From the NCBI RefSeq assembly GCF_004010195.1, contig NC_057718.1:38901263-38965262 (forward strand): 64,000 bases of DNA, read 5' to 3'. The DNA comes from Chiloscyllium plagiosum. Taxonomy: Eukaryota. Position 1 is the first letter of the stretch. Each line of letters begins with the position of its first letter. The position numbers were made by a program, and so were the translations under genes. Below are positions 1-48,796 of this stretch, one piece after another. The notes beneath the pieces were generated by a model that ran no database searches, was not told the origin of the DNA, and was given only the letters and a program-made list of their open reading frames with translations.

Positions 1-1371
1 ATCTGTCTCAACAAGAAGTTGTGGTATATTTTACTTAGATGGCAGCAATGGTGACAGTACGTGGGCACTAAAAGCTAATTGTGACATCTAGTCAGTGGCA
101 GTAAGTGGATGCTAAAAGCTAAAAAGGTGGTGGCAGTGTTGCAGTTGTGAAAAGTTTTATTCCTAATAGTCATCCATTAAATCTAACCAGATTCAGAACA
201 ATAGTGCAGCTATAGCCAAACCTAATGGCTATAAGTCTGTACTGGAGCACTCTATTTCAAAAAGCAGCAATATACATCACGCTCAGTACAACTGCAATTT
301 TTTTAAAAAGTGGCAGATTAAAAGGAAATTGCATGGACAGTTCATAGCTACAGAAAGCATTTCTGGAACACAAAACAGGAGAAAAAACCTGAAAATGCAG
401 TACCCTACATTAGAAATACTTACCTGTTTGCAATTGTTAGTTGATTCTGTCATCTTGCCTCTTGGATAAAGTGTGGAAATAAATCTGTTATCACCACTTT
501 TATGGTGAAACTGCCACCTACAGACAAAAACCTATTATTACAGGCCTGAAATTTTAAAAGTGCAGCAAGAAAGAAATAAACCATCTGCTATTTTTAAAAC
601 TGCAGCAACAAATAGAAAAATACTTTTAAAGCCATCAATAGGACATTTAAAAATGCTACACTTCTTTCATTCTGATACTTGAAAGATTTTGTTAGAACCC
701 ACACTAATTTTTCTCTATTTTTAATTTATTCTTTTATCAACCTGGTTTCGAGCTGTGAACCGTGAACTACGTTCTAAGTATTACTGCCTTTATCTGAATA
801 AATTTCAAAGGTGACCCTATTTGGTATCTTCAGAAAATTAACCAATAAAGCAGCCTCTATGATTGTGGAACAATGCATTGTGAAAACTATTTAAATAATC
901 TGGCCAGCTTTGTTATTTCCTTTTATTCATCCCTTAACTGTGTTTATTGGTCTATTTGTCTGTCTTGTGTATGAATGAGGCTGAAAACAGAAGTTATAGA
1001 CCAATTAGATGACTTTGTTGTTTAATTTTACTCTGCTAAAGTTATGATATTGTTAATAATTGCTAGGTCCTTTGTTTAAGACACAAACTGGTGTCTGGAA
1101 TTGATTATTTGCAGAGCCTGGGAATTGGTGATTCCAAAGTCTAGTTAGGAACCATTGGTGTCAATTTTGAGAGTTTTTTAAAAAAAGATTTTAACTTTAC
1201 TGTGTTGTGAATACAGAGATACAAAGGCTGATTTGATTCAGTAATTGATCTTCATGCCTTGTTTGGAACGAGGTTGGCATGGTGGATTGCATTGAATATG
1301 AGTTCCCACGTTGAGGTTGTTAACCTGGACCAATCAGGGCGTGCCGGCTGACAGATATAAACAGGAGTCTC

Positions 1372-2736
1372 CGTACTCGCGGGTTCGAGTGGCTGTCGGA
1401 GGGGAGGGCCGTGGCGGCGAGGGTGACCAGGGTCGGGGACATGCTGGGTGCCGGTGGCCTGGGCTGGACGCTGCCGCAGGACATAGCGAGCAGGGCAGCG
1501 GTAGACCTCCAGTACGTGGCCACCGCCATCCGACGCCTCAAAACGGCGGTGCTCGGACCTGACGTAGTGCACCAGTTGGAGGACGCTCAGGTGTGCGGTG
1601 GGATCCCGTCCGCGCTCACCCCAGCCCGGACGGAATTTCACATTGGCTCCAAGGTCCCGTACTTCCCGCGGGAGCCTGTGCCCCACAACCTGAGCCGCCT
1701 CCGAAATTTTAATTTTGCTTTGTTTAGGGATATAAAAAGAACCCTGTATAGACTGCTGCTGCACACCGTCCACCTCTTCTCCCTCATCCACCGTCCGGAC
1801 ACGCCTTGGCGTGCCCATTTGCCACCGGGCGGTGGGGATCCCCAGTGGAGGGCTCTCTACGCGGGAGTCCTCCCCCTTTCTCTCGGGGATCTGGGGTGGA
1901 GGGTGCTGCACGCAGCAGTCCCCTACAANNNNNNNNNNNNNNNNNNNNNNNNNNNNNNNNNNNNNNNNNNNNNNNNNNNNNNNNNNNNNNNNNNNNNNNN
2001 NNNNNNNNNNNNNNNNNNNNNNNNNNNNNNNNNNNNNNNNNNNNNNNNNNNNNNNNNNNNNNNNNNNNNNNNNNNNNNNNNNNNNNNNNNNAAAACAGGT
2101 GTGCTTGCCCTTTGATGTGAAGGGCAGTGTTTGTCACTGGCCACCCGGGTGTTTTCCTATCTTCCTGGTGGTGGAAATTGAATAAGGATTGGTGCACTTT
2201 GTGTCTTTCACTGTCTCACACCTGCACACACACACACCATGGGTGCTGGGGATAAAATAAGCACTACCGCACTTAGGTGGTGGTGTGGGGGTTAAAAAAA
2301 ATAAATAAATAAACAGGAGTCTCCCTTCGCTGTGAAGCGCACTGCTTGTCACTGGCCACTCGGGTGTTTCCTTTCTTCCTGGTGGTGGAAATTGAATAAA
2401 GATTCGTGCACTTTGTGTCTTTCACTGTGTCTCACACCTGCACACACACACACCATGGGTGCTGGGGATAAAATAAGCACTACCGCACTTAGGTGGTGGT
2501 GTGGGGGTTAAAAAAAAAAAATAAATAAACAGGAGTCTCCCTTCGCTGTGAAGCGCACTGCTTGTCACTGGCCACTAGGTTGTTTCCTTTCTTCCTGGTG
2601 GTGGAAATTTGAATAAAGATTTGTGCACCTTGTGTCTTTCACTGTGTCTCACACCTGCACACACACACCATGGGTGCTGGGGGAAAATATAAGCACTACA
2701 GCGGTTAGGCGGTAGTGTGGGGTTTTTTTAAAAAAA
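1372..2736 (+). mobile_element. 5'-truncated Tx1/L1-clade non-LTR retrotransposon (ORF2 C-terminus plus tandemly repeated 3' UTR), young
   Basis: Open frame 1411-1928 ends in WRALYAGVLPLSLGDLGWRVLHAAVP, resembling the zf-RVT region of Tx1/L1 ORF2. CpGs are retained. A-rich tail; flanking direct repeat AGGAGTCTC at 1363-1371 and 2737-2745. Contains an N-gap. Confidence 0.8.
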
Positions 2737-2745
2737 AGGAGTCTC
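2092..2745 (+). repeat. Three tandem ~216-bp units forming the LINE 3' region
   Basis: ttgtcactggccac...cttcctggtggtggaaattgaataa...cacacaccatgggtgctgggga...A-run occurs three times. The junction motif at 2309 and 2525 gives a period of 216. Confidence 0.95.
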
Positions 2746-2949
2746 AAGGATTCTCCTCATTCTCTAGGGACAGACTCTGAGACAGTCCATGTACTATGCA
2801 CGTGTAAACAAAGGGTGACTTGGTGATGGGATACCAACCTCCATGGAATTATTTCAATGTTCTATCAATTTTAGATTCTGATATTTTAATGAGCATAAAA
2901 CATTCAATAAAACTGAAAAGCAAACACATAACAATGGATTGGCATTCCA

Positions 2950-3400
2950 TTGACATTCTGACAGAACTTCAGCTATTTAGTCCTATGTGTAGTGCCTTAT
3001 TGATACTTTTTGGACATCCAAATATATTACATCTACCGGCTCCCTTTTATCTATTCTGCTTGTTATGTCCTCAAAGAATTCTATTAAGCTTATCAGGCAA
3101 GATTTCTTCTTTATAAAACCATGCTGACTCTGCTTGATTATTTTATGTATTTCTCAGTGCTTTGCTCTTACATCCTTTATAGTAGGCTCTAGTATTTTCC
3201 CAATGACAGATATTAAGCTAATGAGTAAGTTTTATTTGCCTTCCTCCCTTTTTGAGTAATGATGTTCAAATGACATTGTTTACAATCTTGAAATGTTCCA
3301 CAGTCTAAGGATGTTTGGAAGATTACTGCCACTGCCTCCACTATCTCTGTAGTTATTTCCTTTAATATCCTGGTATGCAACCTATTAGATCCGGGGGACT
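2950..3400 (-). mobile_element. Old CR1 LINE ORF2 fragment
   Basis: Resembles the CR1 RT-upstream region seen at 33000-33350 (ccatgctgact, gattactgcc..ccactatctct). Heavily decayed. Confidence 0.6.
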
Positions 3401-3531
3401 ATCTGTATGTAAAATACAGTAACATATATAAGCACAGAACCTAGACTATGTAAGTCTATGATATTGTAGCCGTTGAAAGCGATAGCAATGTAAATTAATT
3501 TCAAGATATTTATCTGAAAAATTACTTGAGT

Positions 3532-5568
3532 TGAAATAATTCCACATAGGCTGGTATTCTGTCATCAAGTCACCCTTTACTTACACATGCATTGTATTGG
3601 ACACTGATCCAGCTTCCTCAGAACCAGCTCTCAAACTGACCAGAATCTCTGACATTCCTGTCTATATCTGTCAGCCAGGACTCCCTCGTAGGACCAGGTT
3701 AAAAGCCCCAATCAGGGAACTCATATTCAATAATAGCTACCTAGCTGACCTTGTAATAATCACTACATCCCTCCCGCTCTAAGTCCGGGGATGCAGTGCT
3801 GTTCTTTTTCTTGTTGCCTCTCCTGGACCGTTTTCACACCGGGTCCAGTTCAACCACCTCAGCCTCGAATACAGGTGGTATATATAGCATCTTAGTGTAC
3901 GTTTTGAACCCAGAGTCGTTCGGAAGAAATTAATCCTTCACTTTAGGAGGTACAGGTGTCAAATCTGCGACATCTGTTATGTCCAACTCAGGCTCCGATT
4001 TTTCTTCAACACTGTATGGAGTGGAAGAATCCATGTGTTCTGACAGCCTTTTCGGCTGTTCTCAGGGGCCGGGTATGTTTTGATCCTGCCCCGTTTGTGA
4101 ATTTGCAGCTTTCATGTGGCTCATATGCTTGTTCAGGACTGTCTCACCTATCCCAAATATTATATGTTATGGGTCCTTACCTTGCATCAGCCATACCTCT
4201 TAACATGCATGGCCATTTTTGTGATTTTGGCACCAAACTTCGTCCTCTAAAGTAAACAGTTTCTTTTGCTTAGAGGAGTCCTGTGTCCGGCATTGGCGTT
4301 CCTGATGTTATTTCACCTTCCCCTCCAGGATCAGGAAGATGAGAGTTAATCTGTGTCTATTTTGATTGGTTCTGATTTGGATGTTGCTAAGCAATTTGAC
4401 TATTCCAAGACAGCTGTGGGTGTGCTTTCCAGGGTGTGCAGTTTCTAGAATACCAGCCTATGAGTTCTCTTATTTAATTCCAACCTAGTGGCACTCTTTT
4501 GCTGTCTCAAGTCTGCAAACCACCAGCAACTACAATGGCTTGCAGGTCCGGATACTGAAGAAAATGTTAACCGATTGGTCAAGGCTTGGCTTTGTTTTGG
4601 AGGTTTGTTGTAGGCTGATCTGGAGTCCCTCTGTTCAGAATGTGTCTTGAGTGAGGTTATGCAATTGCCTTTACTCAAGTGATGTTCTCCAAGCTCAGTC
4701 GGACTGGTGAGAGTGTTCGCTACCATTGGATTACCCTGCAACTCACATGCTAGATGTATCGCATTTTTTAATGGCAAAGCCAGTTGTACAGCCTGTGTGA
4801 AGTCCAGTTGGGCTTCAATTAGGTGCTTTTGCATGGTTACCTCATTAATCCCACATACCAAATGGTCTCACAGAATTTCATTAAGATGACTTAAACCGAA
4901 GTCACATGCCACTGCCAGGCATCTTAACATTGTCCAAAATCCCAACATAGATTCCCCTGGTTCTCGAACTGCCAAGTAGAACAGATATCAGAATTAGAGG
5001 AGACCTGGGGTCATATTATTCCTTAACTAAATCCATCAACTCTTAAAGGTTTTAGTACCCACTGCCTCGGGAAACATTATCTCTTAACAATGAAAAAGCT
5101 GTGGGTCCACAAGCTGATAGGAGAATTACTCATTGTCTTTCATCTTCCCAAATGTCATTTGCATGGATAGAAGTAACATATTCTTTCCACATACTGGGCC
5201 CAGTCTTCAACGGTAAGATCGACTGAGTCAAGCTTCCCAAATAACGGCATGATGCCAGAAATGTTTACCCCAACTCAAAGACGCTTGTTGCGAGTGAATT
5301 TCTTAAGGAACACTTTTTTTCTCTTTAATCATCACTAAAGTAACTCCACAGAGGCCAGTATCCTGTCGCCAAGATACCCTCGATTCACATATACAAACTG
5401 TACACTATTCTGGCTTTCTCAGAGCCAGCTCTCAGAGTGAACTGAACCTCTGACACTCCTGTTTATATCTGTCAGCCAGGGCTCCCAGCTTGAACCAAGT
5501 TAGCAGCTCCAATCAGGGCACTCATACTGCATGTGGTAAATTTGGCTGACTTGGTTACAATCACTACA
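3532..5568 (-). mobile_element. Internally deleted Gypsy LTR retrotransposon: two ~235-bp LTRs (5336-5568, 3532-3767), decayed gag, integrase 3' remnant
   Basis: Direct LTRs start TGTAGTGATT on the minus strand. Polypurine tract agagcgggaggga abuts the 3' LTR. gag begins at ATG 5250 (MPLFGKLDS..EDWAQYVER) and continues VCGINEVTMQKHLIEAQLDFTQAVQLAL. No RT seen. Confidence 0.88.
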
Positions 5569-6074
5569 TTAGCCTCTGTTACACCTGTCACACAAAGTGA
5601 CATTTAGAAAACCACAAACCACATTACCATTCGTCTGGGAATTCGTAAACTAGTCTTTAAATAATTAGAGTGAACGCCAGGGCCATTCATGCTGCTCCCT
5701 GTCTTAGTTGAGAATGTAAGAAAATTGAAGATTTTCGTCTCTTCAGACAGGACTACAAAGTGGCAAATTTAAAATGTCAGCTTCAACTGGTAATTAAATC
5801 ATTCTTTGACCCTCTGTAACTTCTTCGTGTCATGTTGTACTTTGCACATTCTTATTAACACCTTTCTGTGACCATGTAATAAAAACCCTGACCATTATGT
5901 GGAGTTAGAAAATTTGGGAATGGTGAAGCCCCCTCAGTCCAAACTTGCCTGATCTTTTCTTTCCATCCAGACACTCCTTATATTTAGCTGGAATGTCAAA
6001 ACTCTTGTCTTTATTAAAAAAAAACATCCGATTTTATCCTTCAGATATAGGAGTGTTGAACTCCTACAACTACA

Positions 6075-6445
6075 GGACACGACGCGAATATTTAACAAAG
6101 CTGCGGGTTAACAAACGGGACCTTTCCAGGAGCCGCGACCAGTTTCCCTCCGGTACTCATTCACCGCCGCAACCACCGGCTTGTAACGGTGCAGCCACGA
6201 TCGGCTTTCGGAGGGGAAACATCATCCGCCGGGAGCAGCGCGAGTGTTCGGCAGCTCGGGCGGGTCGCGGGTTAGTGCGGCTGCTGCAGCTCGGTATCAG
6301 ACGCTCATGTTTATTGTTGTTGTTGAAGCTGCTGTGCACCTTTGTGTTTTTGCAGCTGACTTTTCCCCTGTGTGTTTACAGAGCGATGCCGAGCGCCTGT
6401 CTGCCCTCCTGGGAGCTCAGTTTCTACCTCGCCATCACAGTCGGA
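6075..6445 (+). promoter_or_regulatory. CpG island: probable HHAT promoter and 5' UTR, with a candidate short first intron 6271-6381
   Basis: Dense CpGs in unique sequence within an otherwise CpG-poor window. Donor-like cgg|gttagt at 6271 and a strong acceptor 4 nt upstream of the ATG. Confidence 0.7.
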
Positions 6446-6488
6446 TTTCACTTTTACTCCTTCCATGAAGTGTACCAACTCTCCAGAA
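6386..6488 (+). CDS. HHAT: Hedgehog acyltransferase, first coding exon (MPSACLPSWELSFYLAITVGFHFYSFHEVYQLSR)
   Basis: ATG at 6386 follows a pyrimidine tract and acceptor tttacag (ends 6381). Translation matches the recalled vertebrate HHAT N-terminus (LPRWELALY...GFHFYSFYEVYKVSR). Donor gtaaga at 6489, phase 1. Confidence 0.95.
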
Positions 6489-8112
6489 GTAAGAGCGCTT
6501 CCTTCCCCTGCAACACTGGTAGCACCCCTCCCTGCACCTTCTGCGCTGCCTAGAAGTAACTTTTGTTTTTACAATAAATCCTTTTTTTTAAAAACATAAA
6601 TTCAAAACTAATATCTCAGAGAGTTGCCTGGAAAAGTGGACAGTTTCTGCCTTTTAAGCAGATGCACAGTGTATAGGATCAAAACGTTTTTGAGAGGGAG
6701 GGTGATTCATCAGTTATCTGAATGAAAGAGACACTCTATGGCTCTGGTGGTATCGGTGGAGAGAAGCAGAGTCTGAATTGCAACAGTCAGCCTGCTCGAT
6801 GGTGACCTGTCCACTTAAAAGCTGGCTACCCTGCAGACAGACTATCCAGTAACCCCACCATCTCTTGAAAATGGCAGGCAGGTTATGGTAGATGGTGAGC
6901 CGGACACTCATTAGATCTTCCGACTCAAATCTTTCTGCCAACAACTGCTTCTCCCTCCCATGTTTTCAAACTCTCGACCCGGGAATGTAACACATTGCCA
7001 AATATTTCAGGTCAGTGACTTCTGTCACCGAATGCTTCTGAAAGGATTAATGTTGGAGATTGCATTAGGCTGTAACCAGTCTGACTGTGTCACACAATTT
7101 TGGCAGTGAATTGAGGAGTTCAACTGTAGATCTTTCAAACATGAATTATCAATACTGCTAAGTAAGCAGCAGTCCATGTACTGTGACTAAGGATGTGAAA
7201 ATATCCATTTCAATGTGAAGACAGCCATAAAGAATGAATGAAGACCTTCAGCATACTTAAACAATTGAAATAAAGACTTGTTGGGCCTAATGGCCTGTTT
7301 CCACACTGTAGGGATTCTGTGTTTAAAAAAAAAAGATTATATTCAGGCTGACATTTTACCTGGCAGTGGAGAAAAACTAGAAGGTAACATTTCCTGACAC
7401 TCTCCTGGTGGCTATAACTTGCAGCTGGCACCTCCATGTTGGTTAACACCTTGGCACATTCCATGCGCAGTGACTTGCATCTTTAGTCTAAGGAGGTTGA
7501 CAACAGAAATGGACCAGTTGCACCATATTATGACACATTTATGGTTCACTTAGAAAATAGCTCAATTCGTCACTTTGGAATTTACCAGGCACCTGTTTCA
7601 TGCATTGGAAAATAGTACATCTCAGGCTTTTTGCTTACTGTCTTCGTGTTCACTCACTTTACACCTGCTTAGGTGTTCACAGCAGTGTGCATCTTGTCTT
7701 TTGTGCATTGCTGCATCATTCAGAGCTTACAGCCACACTGTACTTCTATTTTGCTTTGCAGTTTTGTGCAGTTACAAAGCCAAATAGCCTGTCATGTTTG
7801 CCACCAGTGATCAGTCAAGGGGTGGACACGTTGCTGTATGGTACCATATGATGCAAGTGTCACACTTGCAGCATATGCCACAACAAACGCACTGCATATG
7901 CTTTAACCAAGTGACCGTGTATGAACATCTAAGGGGAATAGCCCCTCAGTTGGGCCTAGGGTACAACACAGTATTTGATATATGGTCTCACCAATGCTCC
8001 ATATAACTGAAGCATGTTCAGTTCCTCTTGTAATACATGATGCGTTTCATTAGTCTTCTTAATTACTTGCATTTGCACACTAGCATGTACATGTACTCTT
8101 GAACACAAAGAT

Positions 8113-12545: not shown

Positions 12546-12997
12546 AATCAGTTCCTTGCTAGTATGTGTATAGGACTCTGCTAAATGAAATTCACACCAC
12601 TTGCCACCATGTTGTAAGATGAATCCTTACCAGTGCTCATTATTATAGAACTAACTGGTAGATTTTCTGCTACCTTCCCCTTTCCTGTTGGCGATCTACA
12701 GGCCCTTCTTGGTCTTGTACTCATTAGTCTAACAAGAACAAGCTGTTTTCTTAAATATGATATAAGTTATTGTACGATAGGAACTATGTATGCATTACAT
12801 TAATATTATAGTTTGTATAACAAGGTATATGAGCAAGATCCCTATGGTTGATTGTACTCCTTTTGTAGTCTGAAGCTCTTCACTTTCTTAAACCCATCAT
12901 CATAATGTCATTGTTATGACATCATCATAATGGGTGGTACTTAAGGCAGTCTGCAATATAAATCATTTCAGACTCTCAAGTCCATATAAGGTAGTAG

Positions 12998-13482
12998 ATT
13001 CTGGATCAATGGTGCTGGAAGAGCACAGCAGTTCAGGCAGCATCCGAGGAGCTTCAGCAAAATCGACGTTTCGGGCAAAAGCCCTTAATCAGGAATAAAG
13101 GCAGAGAGCCTGAAGCGTGGAGAGATAAGCTAGAGGAGGGTGGGGGAGACCTCCAGCTCAACACTGTCCCCTTGTCTTGTCCGGACTTGTCCGACCTGCC
13201 CAGCTCCTTTTCCACCTATCCACTCCACCCTCTCCTCCCTGACCTATCACCTTCATCTCCTCCCCCACTGACCTATTGTACTCTATGCTACTCTCTCCCC
13301 ACCCCCACCCTCCTCTAGCTTATCTCTCCACGCTTCAGGCTCTCTGCCTTTATTCCTGATGAAGAGCTTTTGCCCGAAACGTCGATTTTGCTGAAGCTCC
13401 TCGGATGCTGCCTGAACTACTGTGCTCTTCCAGCATCATTGATCCAGAATCTGGTTTCCAGCATCTGCAGTCATTGTTTTTA
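12998..13482 (+). mobile_element. Penelope-like element terminus with ~150-bp inverted repeat and 16-bp TSD
   Basis: TSD CCATATAAGGTAGTAG at 12982-12997 and 13483-13498. Arms ~12996-13146 and ~13300-13452 are near-perfect reverse complements, each with a hammerhead-like core. Confidence 0.92.
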
Positions 13483-41125: not shown

Positions 41126-41439
41126 TTAGATTAGATTACTTACAGTGTGGAAACAGGCCCTTCGGCCCAACAAGTCCACACCGACCCGCCGAAGCGCAAC
41201 CCACCCATACCCTTACATTTACCCCTTTAACCTAACACTACGGGCAATTTAGCATGGCCAATTCACCTGACCCGCACATTTTTGGATTGTGGGAGGAAAC
41301 CGGAGCACCCGGAGGAAACCCACGCAGACACGGGGAGAATGTGCAAACTCCACACAGTCAGTCGCCTGAGTCGGGAATTGAACCCGGGTCTCTGGCGCTG
41401 TGAGGCAGCAGTGCTAACCACTGTGCCACTGTGCCGCCC
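41126..41439 (-). mobile_element. V-SINE (HE1-like), full length, young
   Basis: Near-identical reverse complement of 48476-48796, with CpGs intact. Confidence 0.95.
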
Positions 41440-41830
41440 ATAATTGTCGACAGGGTCCTCAGCTGAGTCTGACCTATTTCCTACACTTTCCTCCCACAAC
41501 AGTGATAGGATTCCCCTTGTCCTCACCTACCATCCTACCAGCATCCATATCCAGAGGATCATCAGTCACCGTTTCCACCACCTACAACGAGATGCCACCA
41601 AGGGACACATATTCCCCTCTCCTCCCTTGTTCACCTTCCACAGGGACTGTTACCGCTGGGACATACTGGTTCACTCTTCCTTCACTCCCAGCACCACCAC
41701 CACAGCCCCAGGGCATCTTCCCCTGCAACCTTTGAAGGTGTAGCACCTATCTCCTCCCTCCTCAGTATCCAAGGGCCTAACCATATCTCCTGGGTGAAGA
41801 AACACTTTACCTGCACTACACACAATCCAG

Positions 41831-42070
41831 GCAAAAGTGGGTACTGCAGATGCTGGAGATTAGAGTCAAGATTAGAATAGGGTTGGAAAAGCACAGCAAG
41901 TCAGGCAGCATCTAAGCAGCAGGAAAATCAATGTTTCGGACAAAAGCCCTTCATCAGGCTTCATCAGCCCTCATTCCTGATGAAGGGCTTTTGCTCGAAG
42001 CATTGATTTTCCTGCTTCTCAGATGCTGCCTGACCTGCTGTGCTTTTCCAGCACTACTCTAATCTTGACT
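41831..42070 (-). mobile_element. Nested Penelope-like inverted-repeat terminus, 15-bp TSD
   Basis: CTACACACAATCCAG at 41816-41830 and 42071-42085. Two opposed hammerhead-like cores near the centre. Confidence 0.9.
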
Positions 42071-42440
42071 CTACACACAATCCAGTTTACTGCATTCACT
42101 GCTTTACATTGTGGTCTCCTCTACACTGGGGAGATAAAGCATAGACTGTGGACTTCTTCGCAAAATATCTACATTCTGCCTGCAAAAAAAGACCCTGAGC
42201 TTCCAATGCCTGTCACTTTAACACACCACCCAGTTCCCTGGCCAACATCTCTGTCTCAGGCTTGTTGCAGTGCTCCAGTGAAGCTCAGTGCAAGCACATT
42301 TTCCACTTGGGGCTCTGCAGCCCTCTGGATTCAATATTGAGTTCAATAGTTTTAGTGCCTGTACTCCCCCATGTCCTAGCCCCAACCCACACACAGACCT
42401 TGTTATCACATAGTCTGCCATTGCACACTGTTTATTGTTG

Positions 42441-42836
42441 AGGAGAAAGTGAGGTCTGCAGATGCTGGAGATCAGAGCTGGAAATGTGTTGCTGGAAAAG
42501 CGCAGCAGGTCAGGCAGCATCCAGGGAACAGGAGAATCGACGTTTCGGGCATAAGCCCTTCTTCAGGAANNNNNNNNNNNNNNNNNNNNNNNNNNNNNNN
42601 NNNNNNNNNNNNNNNNNNNNNNNNNNNNNNNNNNNNNNNNNNNNNNNNNNNNNNNACCTCTTTCCACCTATCACATTTCTGACGCCCCTCCCCCAAGTCC
42701 CTCCTCCCTACCTTTTATCTTAGCCTGCTGGACAAACTTTCCTCATTCCTGAAGAAGGGCTTATGCCCGAAACGTCGATTCTCCTGTTCCCTGGATGCTG
42801 CCTGACCTGCTGCGCTTTTCCAGCAACACATTTCCA
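42441..42836 (-). mobile_element. Nested young Penelope-like inverted-repeat terminus, 16-bp TSD (contains an N-gap)
   Basis: ACACTGTTTATTGTTG at 42425-42440 and 42837-42852. Arms 42480-42569 and ~42746-42835 are perfect reverse complements. Confidence 0.92.
42745..42781 (+). ncRNA. Minimal type-I hammerhead-ribozyme-like motif
   Basis: CTGAAGA-A-GGGC-TTAT-GCCC-GAAAC-GTC: conserved CUGANGA and GAAA boxes, 4-bp stem II, GUC triplet. Mirror copy on the minus strand at ~42535-42569. Confidence 0.75.
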
Positions 42837-43022
42837 ACACTGTTTATTGTTGTCCATTAATAGTCTCCAAAACAGCTAATCACTCTCCTAGCCTGATTGT
42901 TATCCACTCCTTTGTCTGTCCAACTCTTCTCTCTCTTTGGGCTCCAACCCCACCTATTGTTTACTCCTTACCTCTCCCCACATCCTATCTTCTGCAGATA
43001 AACCAACATTTTTCTAGCTACC

Positions 43023-43068
43023 ATCAGTTCTGAGGAAGGGTCACCGGACCCGAAACATTTACTCTGAT
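43023..43068 (+). ncRNA. Hammerhead-like motif of a second Penelope subfamily
   Basis: atcagtt-CTGAGGA-A-GGGTC-ACCG-GACCC-GAAAC-att..ctctgat. Stem II differs from the other subfamily but still pairs, and flanks atcag/ctgat can form stem I. Confidence 0.65.
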
Positions 43069-43594
43069 TTCTCTTCATGGATGCTGCCAGACTTGCTGAG
43101 CTTTTCCAGCGACTTCTGTTTTTGTTTCTGATTTACAGCAACTGCAGTCCTTTTGTTTTTCCTTAGTCTGTGGAACTTTTTTCCCTAGAGTAGTGGAAGT
43201 AGGATCAGTCAATAATTTTAAGACTGACTTCTTGACTGATAAGGGAGTCAAATGGTTTAGGGAATAGACAGGGAAGTAGACAGCCTGATCATAATTAGAT
43301 TACCCATGATCATGTTAAAAGTGGCGTAGACTCATGGGACCAGAAGGCCAACTCCTGCTCCTGATTGTTATATTAATATGCATACTACATGTTGACTTTA
43401 TATCAGGGAAAAACAATTGGGGATTTAATAAATCTTGTTTGAAACTGAAATAGAATTTCCTTGATTGTCATGATTTTATAATGAATTTTGTTGGTGATTG
43501 TAGTAAAAACAAATAAAATGAGACAAGTAAGTACTTCTCTACTTCAATCTGGATTTACTTGCTTTTGTTTTCTTTTTACTTTCAAATGAAACAG

Positions 43595-43766
43595 ATGAGA
43601 AAACCAAAGGTGTCAGTTCCCAAAAAAGACCTTGCATGTTTGTTGCTGAGTGGAGTGCGCATTTTGTTCTGGTGGTGTCTGACAGAGTCCATGCTTCAAC
43701 TCATGTATATTCATGCAATTCAGCAGCAAGAAACAATATTGGAATCTGCCTCTTACTGGACTTTAG
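43595..43766 (+). CDS. HHAT: HHAT coding exon 6 (MRKPKV...VRILFWWCLTESMLQLMYIHAI...ASYWTL), 172 nt
   Basis: Acceptor aaacag after a T-rich tract, donor gtttgt, phase 0 to 1. Matches RLLCWWWLAELMAHLMYMHAI..SCWTLG. Confidence 0.96.
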
Positions 43767-43886
43767 GTTTGTGCGATATCTGTCACTTTATAATAAAATG
43801 TACAAATGATCTTGTATTGAAGAATATATTATGAGTTGATAGAATAATAAGATTGGACAGCAGTTCTTTGCTTTCACATGAGTGCC

Positions 43887-45097
43887 ATAAGACGCAGGTG
43901 CAGACATAGGCTATTCAGCCCATCGAGTCTGCTCTGCCATTTGATGAGATCATGGATGATCTAAATAGTCCTCATCTGTCTTTCCTCATAAACCTAGAAT
44001 TCCCTTAATGATTAAAGATTTGTCTGTCTCGATGTTGAATAGACATAATGAGCCTGTCTTTACAGCCTGCTATGTAAAGAATTCCACAGACTACAACCCT
44101 CTAAGAGAAGAGAGTCCTCTTCAACTCTGTCTTAAATGGGTGATGCCTTATTCTGAGATAATGCCCTCTGGTTCTAGACTCTCTCACAAGACGAAACAAC
44201 CTCTCAATAGCTCCACTGTCGAGTTCCTAAGAAACCTATGTGTTTCAATAAGGTCACCTCTCACTCTTCTAGATTCTAGTGATGCCAACCTACTCAACTT
44301 CCCATAAGACATTCCCACCAGACCTAAGGTCAACCTAATGAACCTTCTTTGCACTGCCCCCAATGCAATTAAATCTTTCCTTCGTTAGGGATCCCAAAGC
44401 TGTTAACTGTTCACTTTTCCGACTGTTCTCTGTATCATTTTAGTGTTACCTCCCTGATTTGATACTCCATTCCCTTTGAAATTAAGGACAACATTTCATT
44501 TGTCTTCTTTATTACCAGCTGAACTTTTACGTGAGCATTTTGTGACTTTAGCAAGAGGATTCCTAGATTCCTCTGTGCTGTAGTTTTCCACAGTCCTCTC
44601 CATTTAAATTATGTTGAGCTCCTCTATTCTTCTTGCCAAAGTGTTTAGCCTCACATTTTCCCACATAATCCATCTGTCAATTTTTTGCTCACTTGCTTAA
44701 TATCCCTCTGCAAACTCTTTGTGTCATCCACATCACTTGCCTTCCAGCTATTTTTGTGTTATCTGCAAATTTGGCTATAGTTTATTTACTTTCCTCATCC
44801 AATCAGTAATAAATGTTGGGAATAATTGTGGCCCTAGCACTGAACCCTGTTCCACTTCACTAGTTATCATCCTGAAAATGCCCCCCTTTTCATAACTCTC
44901 TGTCTTCTGTGAGACAACTATCTATCCTAGCTAATATACTCCACTGATACCATGAGCTTTTATGCTAAGTAGCCTAAATTATTGTACCTTCTCAACTGTC
45001 TTCTGAAAATCCAAATATATTACATGCACTGCTTCCGCTTTATCCATCCTGCTTATTAGCTCCTCAAAGAATTCTAATAAATTTGTTCAGCGTGATT
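43887..45097 (-). mobile_element. Old CR1 LINE 3' portion
   Basis: Tail (cataagacgcaggtgcagacataggctattcagcccatcgagtctgc) and RT remnants (atctgcaaattt = rc KFAD). Confidence 0.85.
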
Positions 45098-46056
45098 GAA
45101 TCCCTTACAGGTATTTAAACACATACTTATGCTTAATTCTTAATTAGTTCAAAAATTCTGTAAGCATCGTGGTACATTTGGCACATAGTTGGGAGTTCAT
45201 TCAGTTTAGACAATGGACTGAAGCGACTGAAATCAGCAGCACTCCATCACTGATTAAATTCAAATCAACTTGCATACTTCATTTGCTTCTTCTTTCTTGA
45301 AGGTCATATGTCTTCTGTATGGAGCTCATGTATTACATGGGCCTCACTGTGAGCTAACAAAACGTTATAATTGCTCTTTTCCATTGGCGTGGCAATGCCA
45401 TAGAACAAAGGTAGCCTGTTCGTTTTGAACTGAATCTGTAAGTTGTTTTGAACTGAAAGTTTCTACAGTTTAAGTTGATGAAAGAAAGTACTTGCATTTA
45501 AACAGTAGCTGTCACAAACTCAAAATATCCCAAAGTGTTCCACAGCCAGTTAGGTACTTTATGATATATATTTGCAGCGGTTATGTCAGGAAAATTGACA
45601 ATCAGTGTGCACACAGCGAAACCCTCTGAATGCTGTGAATTAAATGGAGAATCAATATGTAGTGATGCTGGTTGAATGGTAATTATTGGGTTTGGACATA
45701 TAAAACGATGTAAATTATTAGTATGGTCTATTTTACAGTTCTGTTATAGCTTGATAGTCGTAAACAGTGAACAGAATCACAACACCAATTTTGTTTATCA
45801 AATGGAAATTCACTTATTTTGATGAGGGAACCACGATTCACCCTTCCTTCCCATGTGCTTTAACTTTATCCCCCTCTCGTCCATCACCTCATTATATTCC
45901 AGTTACCCAACTCTCTTACCACTTCCTTCAGCCTCCCCTTTAGTTTCATTATTCTTCTCTATATAGGACAACAAGCAGTGTCTTATTAAATTTGGTACGT
46001 ATTGCCATTTTCTGTTGAAAGTTATAAGTCATTATTTTCCTACCTTATATATGACT

Positions 46057-46900
46057 TAGAGTCATAGAGTTCGACAGCATGGAAACAGACCCTTCAGACC
46101 AACTTGTGCATGCTGACCAGATATTCTAAACCGATATAATCCCATTTGCCAGCATTTGGCCCATATCCCTCTAAACTCTTCCTATACATGTAATTGTGCC
46201 AGCCTTCACTTTTAAATCTTTTCCCTCTCACCCTAAATCTGTGCCCTCTAGTTTTGGACTTCCCTATCCTGGGAAAAGGATCTTGGCTAATCACCCTATC
46301 AATGCCCCTCATGATTTTGTAAATCTCCATTTGGTCATCCCTCAGTCTCTGATGCTCCAGGGAAAACAGCCCTGGTCTCTTCAGCCTCTCCCCATAGCTC
46401 AAACTCCCCAACCTCAGCAACATGCTTGTAAACCTTTTCTGAACTCTTCCAAATTTCACAATATCCTTTCTGTAGCAGAGAGACCAGAATTGAATGCAAT
46501 ATTCCAAAAGTGGTCTACCAATATCCTGTATAGCTGCAACATGGCCCCTCCCAACTCCTATACTCAATGCACTGACCAATAAAGGCAAGTGTACTGTCAC
46601 TATCCTGTCTACCTTGACTCCACTTTCAAGGAACTATGAGCTTGCACCTCAAGATTTCTTTCTTCGGCAACACTCCCCAGGACCCTACTACTAAGTGTAT
46701 AAGTCCTGCCCTGATTTGCCTCACTAAAATGCAACACCTCACACTTAGCTAGATTAAATACCATCTGCCACTCCTCAGTCCATCAGCCCACCTGACCATG
46801 GTCCCATTGTACTCTGAGATAATCTTCCTCATTGTCCCCTACAACCATCTATTTTGGTGTTATCTGCATTCCTTCTAAATTCACATTCGAATCACTTTCC
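46057..46900 (-). mobile_element. CR1 LINE 3' end (HER1-like)
   Basis: ORF 46094..46600 reads RPLLEYCIQFWS...RVQKRFTSML...FSLEHQRLRDD...KTRGHRFRV. Confidence 0.93.
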
Positions 46901-48475
46901 AATGTCTTGCTGCAAATGCATATTCTGATGAAATAGAGCTGTTGAACAATAACTGTTTACATTTGTATAGTGCCTGATAAAACTGCTACAATTGGGTCTT
47001 GAGTCAAAAATGGAGATGTTGTGAGGGGCAAGCAACAGAATGTTCAAAGAGGTGGATGTCTTTTCACCTGGTCTGAGCTTTCTTTGTATTAAAAGAGGTG
47101 AAACCTGTATTTTGATTTTGAATTAATTTTGACAGGGAAAACAAAGTAATGGTTTTATTCAACGGTTTCTTGTATCTACAGCTGCAGCACATTAAGTGTA
47201 TAGTGCGATTATTTATGCAACTGTGGTATATGAGGGTTTGTAGAGATAAAAAAAACCACCAGGGTTATGTTTCAGTGAGGGAAGGAAGAATTGTGTGCTT
47301 ATAACCTACAGTTGCAGCCGGAAGAGATTGTGGTTTCGGGAGGAGGATTGGGTATGAGGATACTGTCATATTTGATGAATTCATTCCTACAGTTAACTAT
47401 AGCCTTTGGATTGATTGCTCCTGTGATGGTGATCACCATCTCCAACCTCAGTGTGAAGGCCTACAGCTGTGCCCATCTCCTGACTCTTAGATACTCTTGT
47501 TTCTGGTTCTGCAACACTTTGTCCTACAAGAGAGAAGGTAGCATGTCAGTGAGTGTGATGCAGCATGTTTGGGTGATGTGGCTGCCATAATGCAAAGTGT
47601 GAAGCTTGTAGCACTGCTAAGTTTGAGAGGGTGAAGCTGTGAATTTCAGGTAAAATCACGATTGATAGAGATTGTTATTGTGAAGGATGGTATATAGAGC
47701 AGTAAGTGCGATTAGTGACATATTTTGTGAGATATAACATTTGAAGATACTCCCTCCTGCACCAGATGTGTGTCATAACATTGCTGAATAGTTTGATTGG
47801 ATGCTCCCAAAGTTGCGATGGGCCTCACCGGACACGTTGTTCAGTCCTGCCTTAATTCTCACCACAGCCCTTGTTGCTCAGACCCCTATAAGATTCTGAT
47901 CATTATATTATCCACATATTCTTTCAGTGTTCTGGGGAATTATGTTTGGGGATTACAAAAGATTGGATTGAGATTTAGATTAACTTATATATCCTAGAGT
48001 ATTTGTGTATCCACCATGCTATTTGTAAAGTGAGCCTGACAATATAGTCATCTAACTGGTAATGAAATCTTGACAAAACAAGTTACAAAATACAGTATTG
48101 CATCTAACAATATCAGAAGAAAACTCCTTACTTTGAAGGTTAGTAATAAGTTTAAAAATCAAAGATTTGTTGAATAAAAGATCCATACTTGAGAAGGCAA
48201 TCATTTTTAAATTGGACTCAATAGTTTTCCTTTAAAAGAAAGGAGACTGAGCGCACAGTACCAGTTTTTTTTAGTATTCTAAAATGTAGAGTGTAAGATT
48301 CACTTTAATGCAGTTTTGACACTTCTGAGTAAAAGTGCTGTGCTGTGCTGTGTTGGATGCTAGTTGAGTTGAATGCTGACAACTGAAGTGAAAACTGCTA
48401 TAATTTAAAAAAATTAAAAGGTGAACTGAAATGTGCAATATTGTGACCAATAGGTGCAATGTACTCAACTACCTG

Positions 48476-48796
48476 TGGGCGGCACGGTGGCACAGTGGTT
48501 AGCACTGCTGCCTCACAGCGCCAGAGACCTGGGTTCAATACCCGCCTCAGGCGACTGACTGTGTGGAGTTTGCACGTTCTCCCCGTGTCTGCGTGGGTTT
48601 CCTCCGGGTGCTCCGGTTTCCTCCGGTTTCAGTCCAAAGATGTGCAGGTCAGGTGAATTGGCCGTGCTAAATTGCCCGTAGTGTTAGGTAAGGGGTAAAT
48701 GTAGGGGTATGGGTGGGTTGCGCTTCGGCGGGGCGGTGTGGACTTGCTGGGCTGAAGGGCCTGTTTCCACACTGTAAGTAATCTAAGTAATCTAAT
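48476..48796 (+). mobile_element. V-SINE (HE1-like), full length, young
   Basis: tRNA-like head with A/B boxes (tggcacagtgg; ggttcaataccc), V-domain, (taatc)n tail, flanking CTACCTG repeats (48469-48475; 48797-48803). Confidence 0.95.

Follow-up and report, generated by a model that had tools for sequence, protein, structure and literature searches.

Tandem retrotransposon tails at a duplicated LTR target site in a shark genome: a probable case of repeated insertion at one preferred site

A short motif native to an LTR recurs at the starts of tandem retrotransposon tails in the genome of the shark Chiloscyllium plagiosum, which raises the question of whether the element encodes a copy of its own insertion site or whether a single site was hit repeatedly, each hit regenerating the target. 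The initial annotation of this DNA had favoured the former, on the ground that the second and third tail units start identically. The evidence presented here suggests instead that 5'-truncated retrotransposition products have most probably been stacked at a single preferred site, which overlaps the TATA box of the LTR. The tandem array extends over 2108-2722 of the window, i.e. the whole 64-kb stretch of DNA that was analysed, with a period of 216 and 2.9 copies. The previously reported positions of the 16-mer ATAAACAGGAGTCTCC are correct, the match being exact at 1357-1372, 2309-2324 and 2525-2540, and AGGAGTCTC, described as closing the element, is the longest exact match common to both outer junctions (1363-1371 and 2737-2745). 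Only 15 letters of the 16-mer constitute the target, the last letter (C) deriving from the inserts, since the LTR resumes with A at 2746. A gap of 163 N at 1929-2091, which the initial annotation did not mention, lies between the ORF2 piece and unit 1. The features of the locus, numbered from the first letter of the window, are:

1261..1371 (+): 5' half of the solo LTR-like repeat that hosts the insertion, identified by nhmmer and BLAST matches to the direct repeats 3534-3768 and 5338-5569; start approximate
1356..1361 (+): TATAAA box of the LTR, with the target running from its second letter; read from the sequence, promoter function presumed
1357..1371 (+): target 15-mer, left copy (target-site duplication)
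1372..1928 (+): 5'-truncated Tx1-clade ORF2 fragment (putative), downstream of the RT domain, with a 185-aa open frame running into the gap
1929..2091 (no strand): assembly gap of 163 N, which could not accommodate the rest of ORF2
2092..2103 (+): target-like letters bordering the gap, perhaps a degenerate fourth copy of the target; low trust at this contig edge
2104..2308 (+): unit 1, a 3' tail belonging to a very abundant retroposon family whose members end in poly(A); its own end is A-rich
2309..2323 (+): target 15-mer, internal copy 1
2324..2524 (+): unit 2, a chimera of unit 3 head and unit 1 tail (local duplication or misassembly)
2525..2539 (+): target 15-mer, internal copy 2, the same junction as 2309-2323
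2540..2736 (+): unit 3, a 5'-truncated tail with T/A-rich end; body 85.6% identical to unit 1
2737..2745 (+): right target-site duplication AGGAGTCTC, 13/15 when continued into the A tail
2746..2856 (+): 3' half of the solo LTR, with CA end
3534..5569 (-): neighbouring degraded element whose two LTR copies (3534-3768 and 5338-5569) are intact and uninterrupted, serving as empty-site comparator

The segment 1372-2745 interrupts one solo LTR-like copy, both flanks of which align with the two intact copies. An LTR origin of the motif, as originally proposed, is borne out by these homologous copies, which carry versions of the target with one mismatch (5452-5466) and three mismatches (3651-3665), and in both of them the second letter of the TATA box is the first of the target (offset 103). 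At three mismatches or fewer the 15-mer has nine matches in the window, three of them exact, against an expectation of 2.34, and none of 100 shuffles reached nine. The internal spacers display the variant of the local LTR copy (GTCTC), unlike the other two LTR copies in the window, as predicted by duplication of the local site. The letters at 2092-2103 match the local LTR target at 9/10 positions and the copy at 5452 at 10/11, at a contig edge that deserves low trust. No further unit, ORF2 piece or LTR copy, beyond the three LTRs described, was found within the 64-kb window. Rfam returned zero matches in 1-7000, and the predicted RNA fold of unit 2 was not clearly better than that of shuffled sequences (z -1.78; 11 of 200 fold as well).

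The open frame at 1372-1926 comprises 185 residues and is 37% identical to residues 963-1146 of Xenopus Tx1 ORF2 (186 aligned residues, E 2e-27), which supports the assignment to the Tx1 clade made initially; a fish protein named LORF2 provides no real match (E 0.061). The closest relative, P0001 (57% identity), is itself 41% identical to Tx1 ORF2 across 99% of its length and displays RVT_1 and zf-RVT matches, both below the Pfam cut-offs, while Pfam gave no match for the 185-aa fragment. Judged by this homology, the coding piece is a 5'-truncated Tx1-clade LINE carrying a putative homologue of Tx1 ORF2. It is truncated at 1372 and lacks the endonuclease and RT domains. A target-site duplication (nine exact letters at the outer right end and 15 inside) and an A-rich 3' end, which is poly(A) in other copies, are also as in the Tx1 clade. 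Some 450-480 bases of ORF2 are still missing after 1928; the gap is therefore under-sized, with its 163 N, or hides a deletion. The tail unit would represent the 3' UTR of the Tx1-clade LINE, from whose ORF2 it is separated by the gap.

The three units are not equivalent. Unit 2 is 95.3% identical to unit 3 in its 5' part and identical to unit 1 in all 79 columns of its 3' part; the 24 informative differences join units 2 and 3 in 11 of 15 cases before column 124 and in none of nine after it (Fisher p 0.0006; 1/2000 permutations). In addition, the letters that unit 2 has in common with its neighbours are rare in the tail family, reaching across the four public runs described below a maximal share of depth of 1.0-8.6% (C2544), 0.8-2.3% (C2546) and 0.2-2.0% (C2554) for letters common to units 2 and 3, and at most 0.2-2.8% for G2498, common to units 1 and 2. 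This mosaic pattern, together with rare letters shared with both neighbours, identifies unit 2 as a chimera formed locally, and what units 2 and 3 share at their starts is a single junction present in duplicate. The stretches 2212-2360 and 2428-2576, junction included, are identical at 148 of 149 letters, and the identical starts thus lose their value as an argument for an element-encoded target. Three independent insertions were also considered and rejected, as unit 2 would then have to carry rare letters from each neighbour. Of the six differences in the duplicated period, five fall within the last 67 letters (p about 0.013); because of this clustering a single clean duplication is too simple, and later conversion or assembler stitching in unit 2 is possible. 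No contig spanning the junction of units 2 and 3 was present among those listed for the runs, which were aligned on 2460-2900.

Other copies of the tail family were compared, on 2460-2900 only, in four of 24 public runs, comprising three contig sets (two from samples of organism A, the third from organism B) and the raw RNA reads of a further run (organism A). The tail is very abundant, with a summed depth, which is no copy number, of up to about 160,000x unique flank in run X1. The right junction of the locus is spanned by contigs in X1 (2708-2822, no differences) and X5 (2670-2822, two differences), and loose ends with unrelated flanks accumulate behind 2856 in all three contig runs. Before 2539, the loose ends display family sequence unlike the motif in all four runs (31, 50 and 54 contigs and 237 reads; agreement 0.68-0.80), and family sequence reaches 30 letters or more beyond the unit start in the upstream direction. 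Among the rows listed, those of X9 (101 contigs) and X21 (92 reads) run into plain poly(A) after 2722, and the unit bodies contain no target-like word above chance. The check proposed with the initial annotation, namely whether the motif lies between units whatever the flank, thus returns other copies with different upstream letters and a poly(A) 3' end, which argues against an element-encoded target. As other copies continue differently upstream, the motif is best read as LTR target duplicated at insertion and lying outside the element.

Junctions of target and tail are nevertheless not confined to this locus. One X5 contig runs from a tail end and A tail through ..GAACAGGAG into position 2559, a truncation 20 bases further in, and at this junction target and tail have a few letters in common. 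RNA reads crossing the target-tail junction at 2538 number 24, five of which contain four more family letters behind the target; the RNA reads show a strong bias to one strand, as expected of sense transcripts, and are not assignable to this locus. Of 15 joints listed (169 more exist), five connect the tail with the LTR's 3' half in the same orientation, the sides being short (25-35 letters) and the middles unread. In X1, depth through the target is about 80-160x unique flank and 2x just beyond the right duplication, suggesting many loci with tail-plus-target junctions. Repeated hits regenerating the target, the second alternative of the initial annotation, gain support from the duplicated target, the local-variant spacers and these junctions elsewhere. 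Tail-end depth is 7,900-23,000x unique flank and target depth at most about 2% of that, a share that may differ from the real one because contigs break at poly(A); family-wide site specificity may thus be weak.

The starting points of unit 1, unit 3 and the RNA variant lie no more than about five letters apart, a clustering not expected from random truncation. Immediately ahead of the unit start (2530-2539), about 8 of 13 letters of the family's own sequence agree with the target if the register is shifted by one base, a resemblance noticed by eye and post hoc (about 0.04 over seven registers). Searches in more distant material gave zero matches in a 24-mer scan of a metagenome collection and in a 21-mer scan of a viral collection. 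A viral 20-mer scan produced one match of 25 letters, between two genes of a phage-like contig (L001:1496-1525), which was taken as chance. A metagenome 17-mer scan returned 108 stretches, and none of 110 loci extends as a family copy; the best is a 569-base metagenome locus at which 54 of 71 letters (L104:204-272, minus strand) match unit 1 beyond the seed, reflecting chance or a distant relative.

In the proposed sequence of events, the machinery of a Tx1-clade LINE would nick members of the LTR family at a ~15-bp site overlapping the TATA box, and a poly(A)-ended RNA would be copied into the nick by target-primed reverse transcription, as expected from the clade. In the literature, target-primed reverse transcription with staggered nicks is described as duplicating the site (PMC4494074), 5' ends as joining by annealing or directly (PMC4245944), and the Tx group as target-specific (PMC3747384). 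Duplication of the site at each event would leave a fresh target beside the insert, open to a further hit, producing the order target-insert-target-insert-target. Units 1 and 3 would account for at least two events at the locus, and the ORF2 piece would add a third, provided that it terminates within the gap. Unit 2 would have been added without reverse transcription, through duplication of a 216-bp segment across the junction of units 1 and 3 by unequal crossover, slippage or the assembler.

Similar arrangements have been described. Kojima 2015 (PMC4494074) reports that the crocodilian Tx1 families Tx1-8_Crp and Tx1-4_AMi insert preferentially into specific LTR retrotransposons; like the shark element they are Tx1 families with LTR-element targets, but they belong to another host lineage, and a TATA-box position is not known to be common to them. 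The same paper describes SINEU-3 tandems that sandwich a target-site duplication and were first taken for a subfamily ('SINEU-3B'), then for sequential insertions into a regenerated target in another transposon. The shark stack is likewise formed by tandem copies with a target-site duplication between them. It differs in that SINEU-3 is a U2-derived SINE in Mariner-N4_AMi, whereas the shark units have no Rfam match, an LTR target and one local chimera. Tx1L of Xenopus laevis is reported to possess a sequence-specific endonuclease and to use one site inside another transposon (PMC1950540). The shark element resembles Tx1L (YTX2, P0004) in the identity over 186 residues given above and in insertion within another transposon. 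In contrast, the target of Tx1L is the DNA transposon Tx1D, and the endonuclease domain is missing from the truncated shark copy. By the criterion of Kojima 2015, a target-specific family has more than 20% of its flanks in one sequence type (PMC4494074); against this, the shark family displays recurrent LTR junctions and the low target share reported above, subject to the same breakage of contigs at poly(A). No published report on the target sequence of a Tx1 retrotransposon in a shark was found in a search that excluded most subscription journals and Repbase, a result that does not establish absence from print.

The alternatives differ in how far they depart from repeated insertion. A built-in address label, in which each tandem unit of the master element's 3' UTR opens with the target sequence and the RNA pairs with the site for priming or joining, would account for an exact motif at the start of two units and a target-like one before the remaining unit, and it would also have precedent, since target-like RNA sequence is described as aiding priming in SART1Bm and R1Bm (PMC7265360). 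Those elements resemble this proposal in carrying target-like letters in the 3' UTR or in read-through RNA, while the shark family sequence lacks the motif: its letters ahead of the unit start are different in all four runs, its 3' end is poly(A), and no target-matching 3' end of the SART1/R1 kind, present regardless of flank, was found. As units 2 and 3 represent one junction, the motif comes after the A tail, as a duplication would, and other junctions are truncated at other places, we regard an encoded label as very improbable. It is somewhat less far-fetched, though still improbable, that a label was acquired, with stacks of repeated insertions giving rise to read-through RNAs (LINE, poly(A), old target, next tail) that are retrotransposed as blocks, so that the ORF2 piece and unit 1 would be one block from another LTR locus. 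The slightly better fit of 2092-2103 to the other LTR variant, the RNA reads crossing the junction at 2538, and the target-like family sequence before the unit, where three junctions cluster, point in this direction. Yet 2092-2103 lies at the gap edge, both clear internal spacers match the local LTR variant, the 8/13 resemblance was noticed post hoc, and such dimers are read as sequential insertions by Kojima 2015 (PMC4494074).

Two further proposals are sub-cases of the stack rather than departures from it. The ~200-bp tail could be a separate non-autonomous, SINE-like family mobilised in trans to this site. Any link between LINE and tail lies hidden in the gap, target-like letters precede unit 1, the starts of a very abundant family are clustered, and SINEU-3 offers a precedent (PMC4494074), but the family continues for at least 30 more letters upstream, so that the unit start is no fixed 5' end, and there is no Rfam match in 1-7000; we hold a separate family to be unlikely. 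Slightly more credible, while still on the unlikely side, is that unit 2 is an assembly artefact and the DNA contains two units, which would leave target duplication and repeated insertion intact. The under-sized N gap adjoins the array, the duplicated junction is nearly identical in its two copies, and tens of thousands of near-copies in the family invite stitching; on the other hand, five middle differences from unit 3 show that unit 2 is no plain repeat of the same reads, and the right junction is confirmed in two samples. A more elaborate scheme is doubtful to a similar degree as the acquired label. The LINE, lying in sense behind the TATA box, would capture the LTR promoter, target-carrying read-through RNAs would re-insert as blocks, and a degenerate word in the 3' UTR would channel 5' joining, yielding units of nearly constant length (~200 bp) and a self-renewing label. 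Promoter capture with an RNA-borne target would constitute a new principle only if this scheme were true.

Repeated insertion at one LTR site thus remains the preferred reading, and the novelty of an address label is not upheld: insertion at a repeated site with target regeneration is a known habit, a real feature with an ordinary mechanism. The locus adds a further Tx1 family to those that favour a site within another transposon, which helps to annotate a poorly curated vertebrate genome, and it warns that such insertion stacks mimic tandem 3' repeats. If it holds true, a Tx1 endonuclease reading a TATA-proximal 15-mer would extend the small set of sequence-specific APE endonucleases.

The degraded element that provides the empty-site comparator contains two direct terminal repeats of 235 and 232 bp, 73% identical, which start with TGTAG, with a CA end in the 3534 copy and at 2856; an inner part enclosed by two direct terminal repeats with TG..CA ends, as defines an LTR retrotransposon, is therefore present. 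The host LTR repeat may be of Gypsy type. The element spans ~2 kb (3534-5569, minus strand) and displays gag-like remnants, which are a weak lead, with no pol seen. One of four inner fragments has a Pfam match, to DUF4305 and below its cut-off, and in the Atlas these fragments match gag and zf-CCHC clusters with scores below 0.9. Directly after the solo LTR, at 2983-3398 (minus strand), fragments read like a LINE reverse transcriptase of another clade, presumably of CR1/L2 type. The LTR cluster lies 0.8-5 kb upstream of the first coding exon of an HHAT (hedgehog acyltransferase) orthologue at 6386-6488 (plus strand; E 1.4e-08 to the human N-terminus). Elsewhere in the window, abundant short repeats form young inverted pairs at 12996-13452 (97% identical), 41131-48786 (94%) and 42473-42842 (98%).
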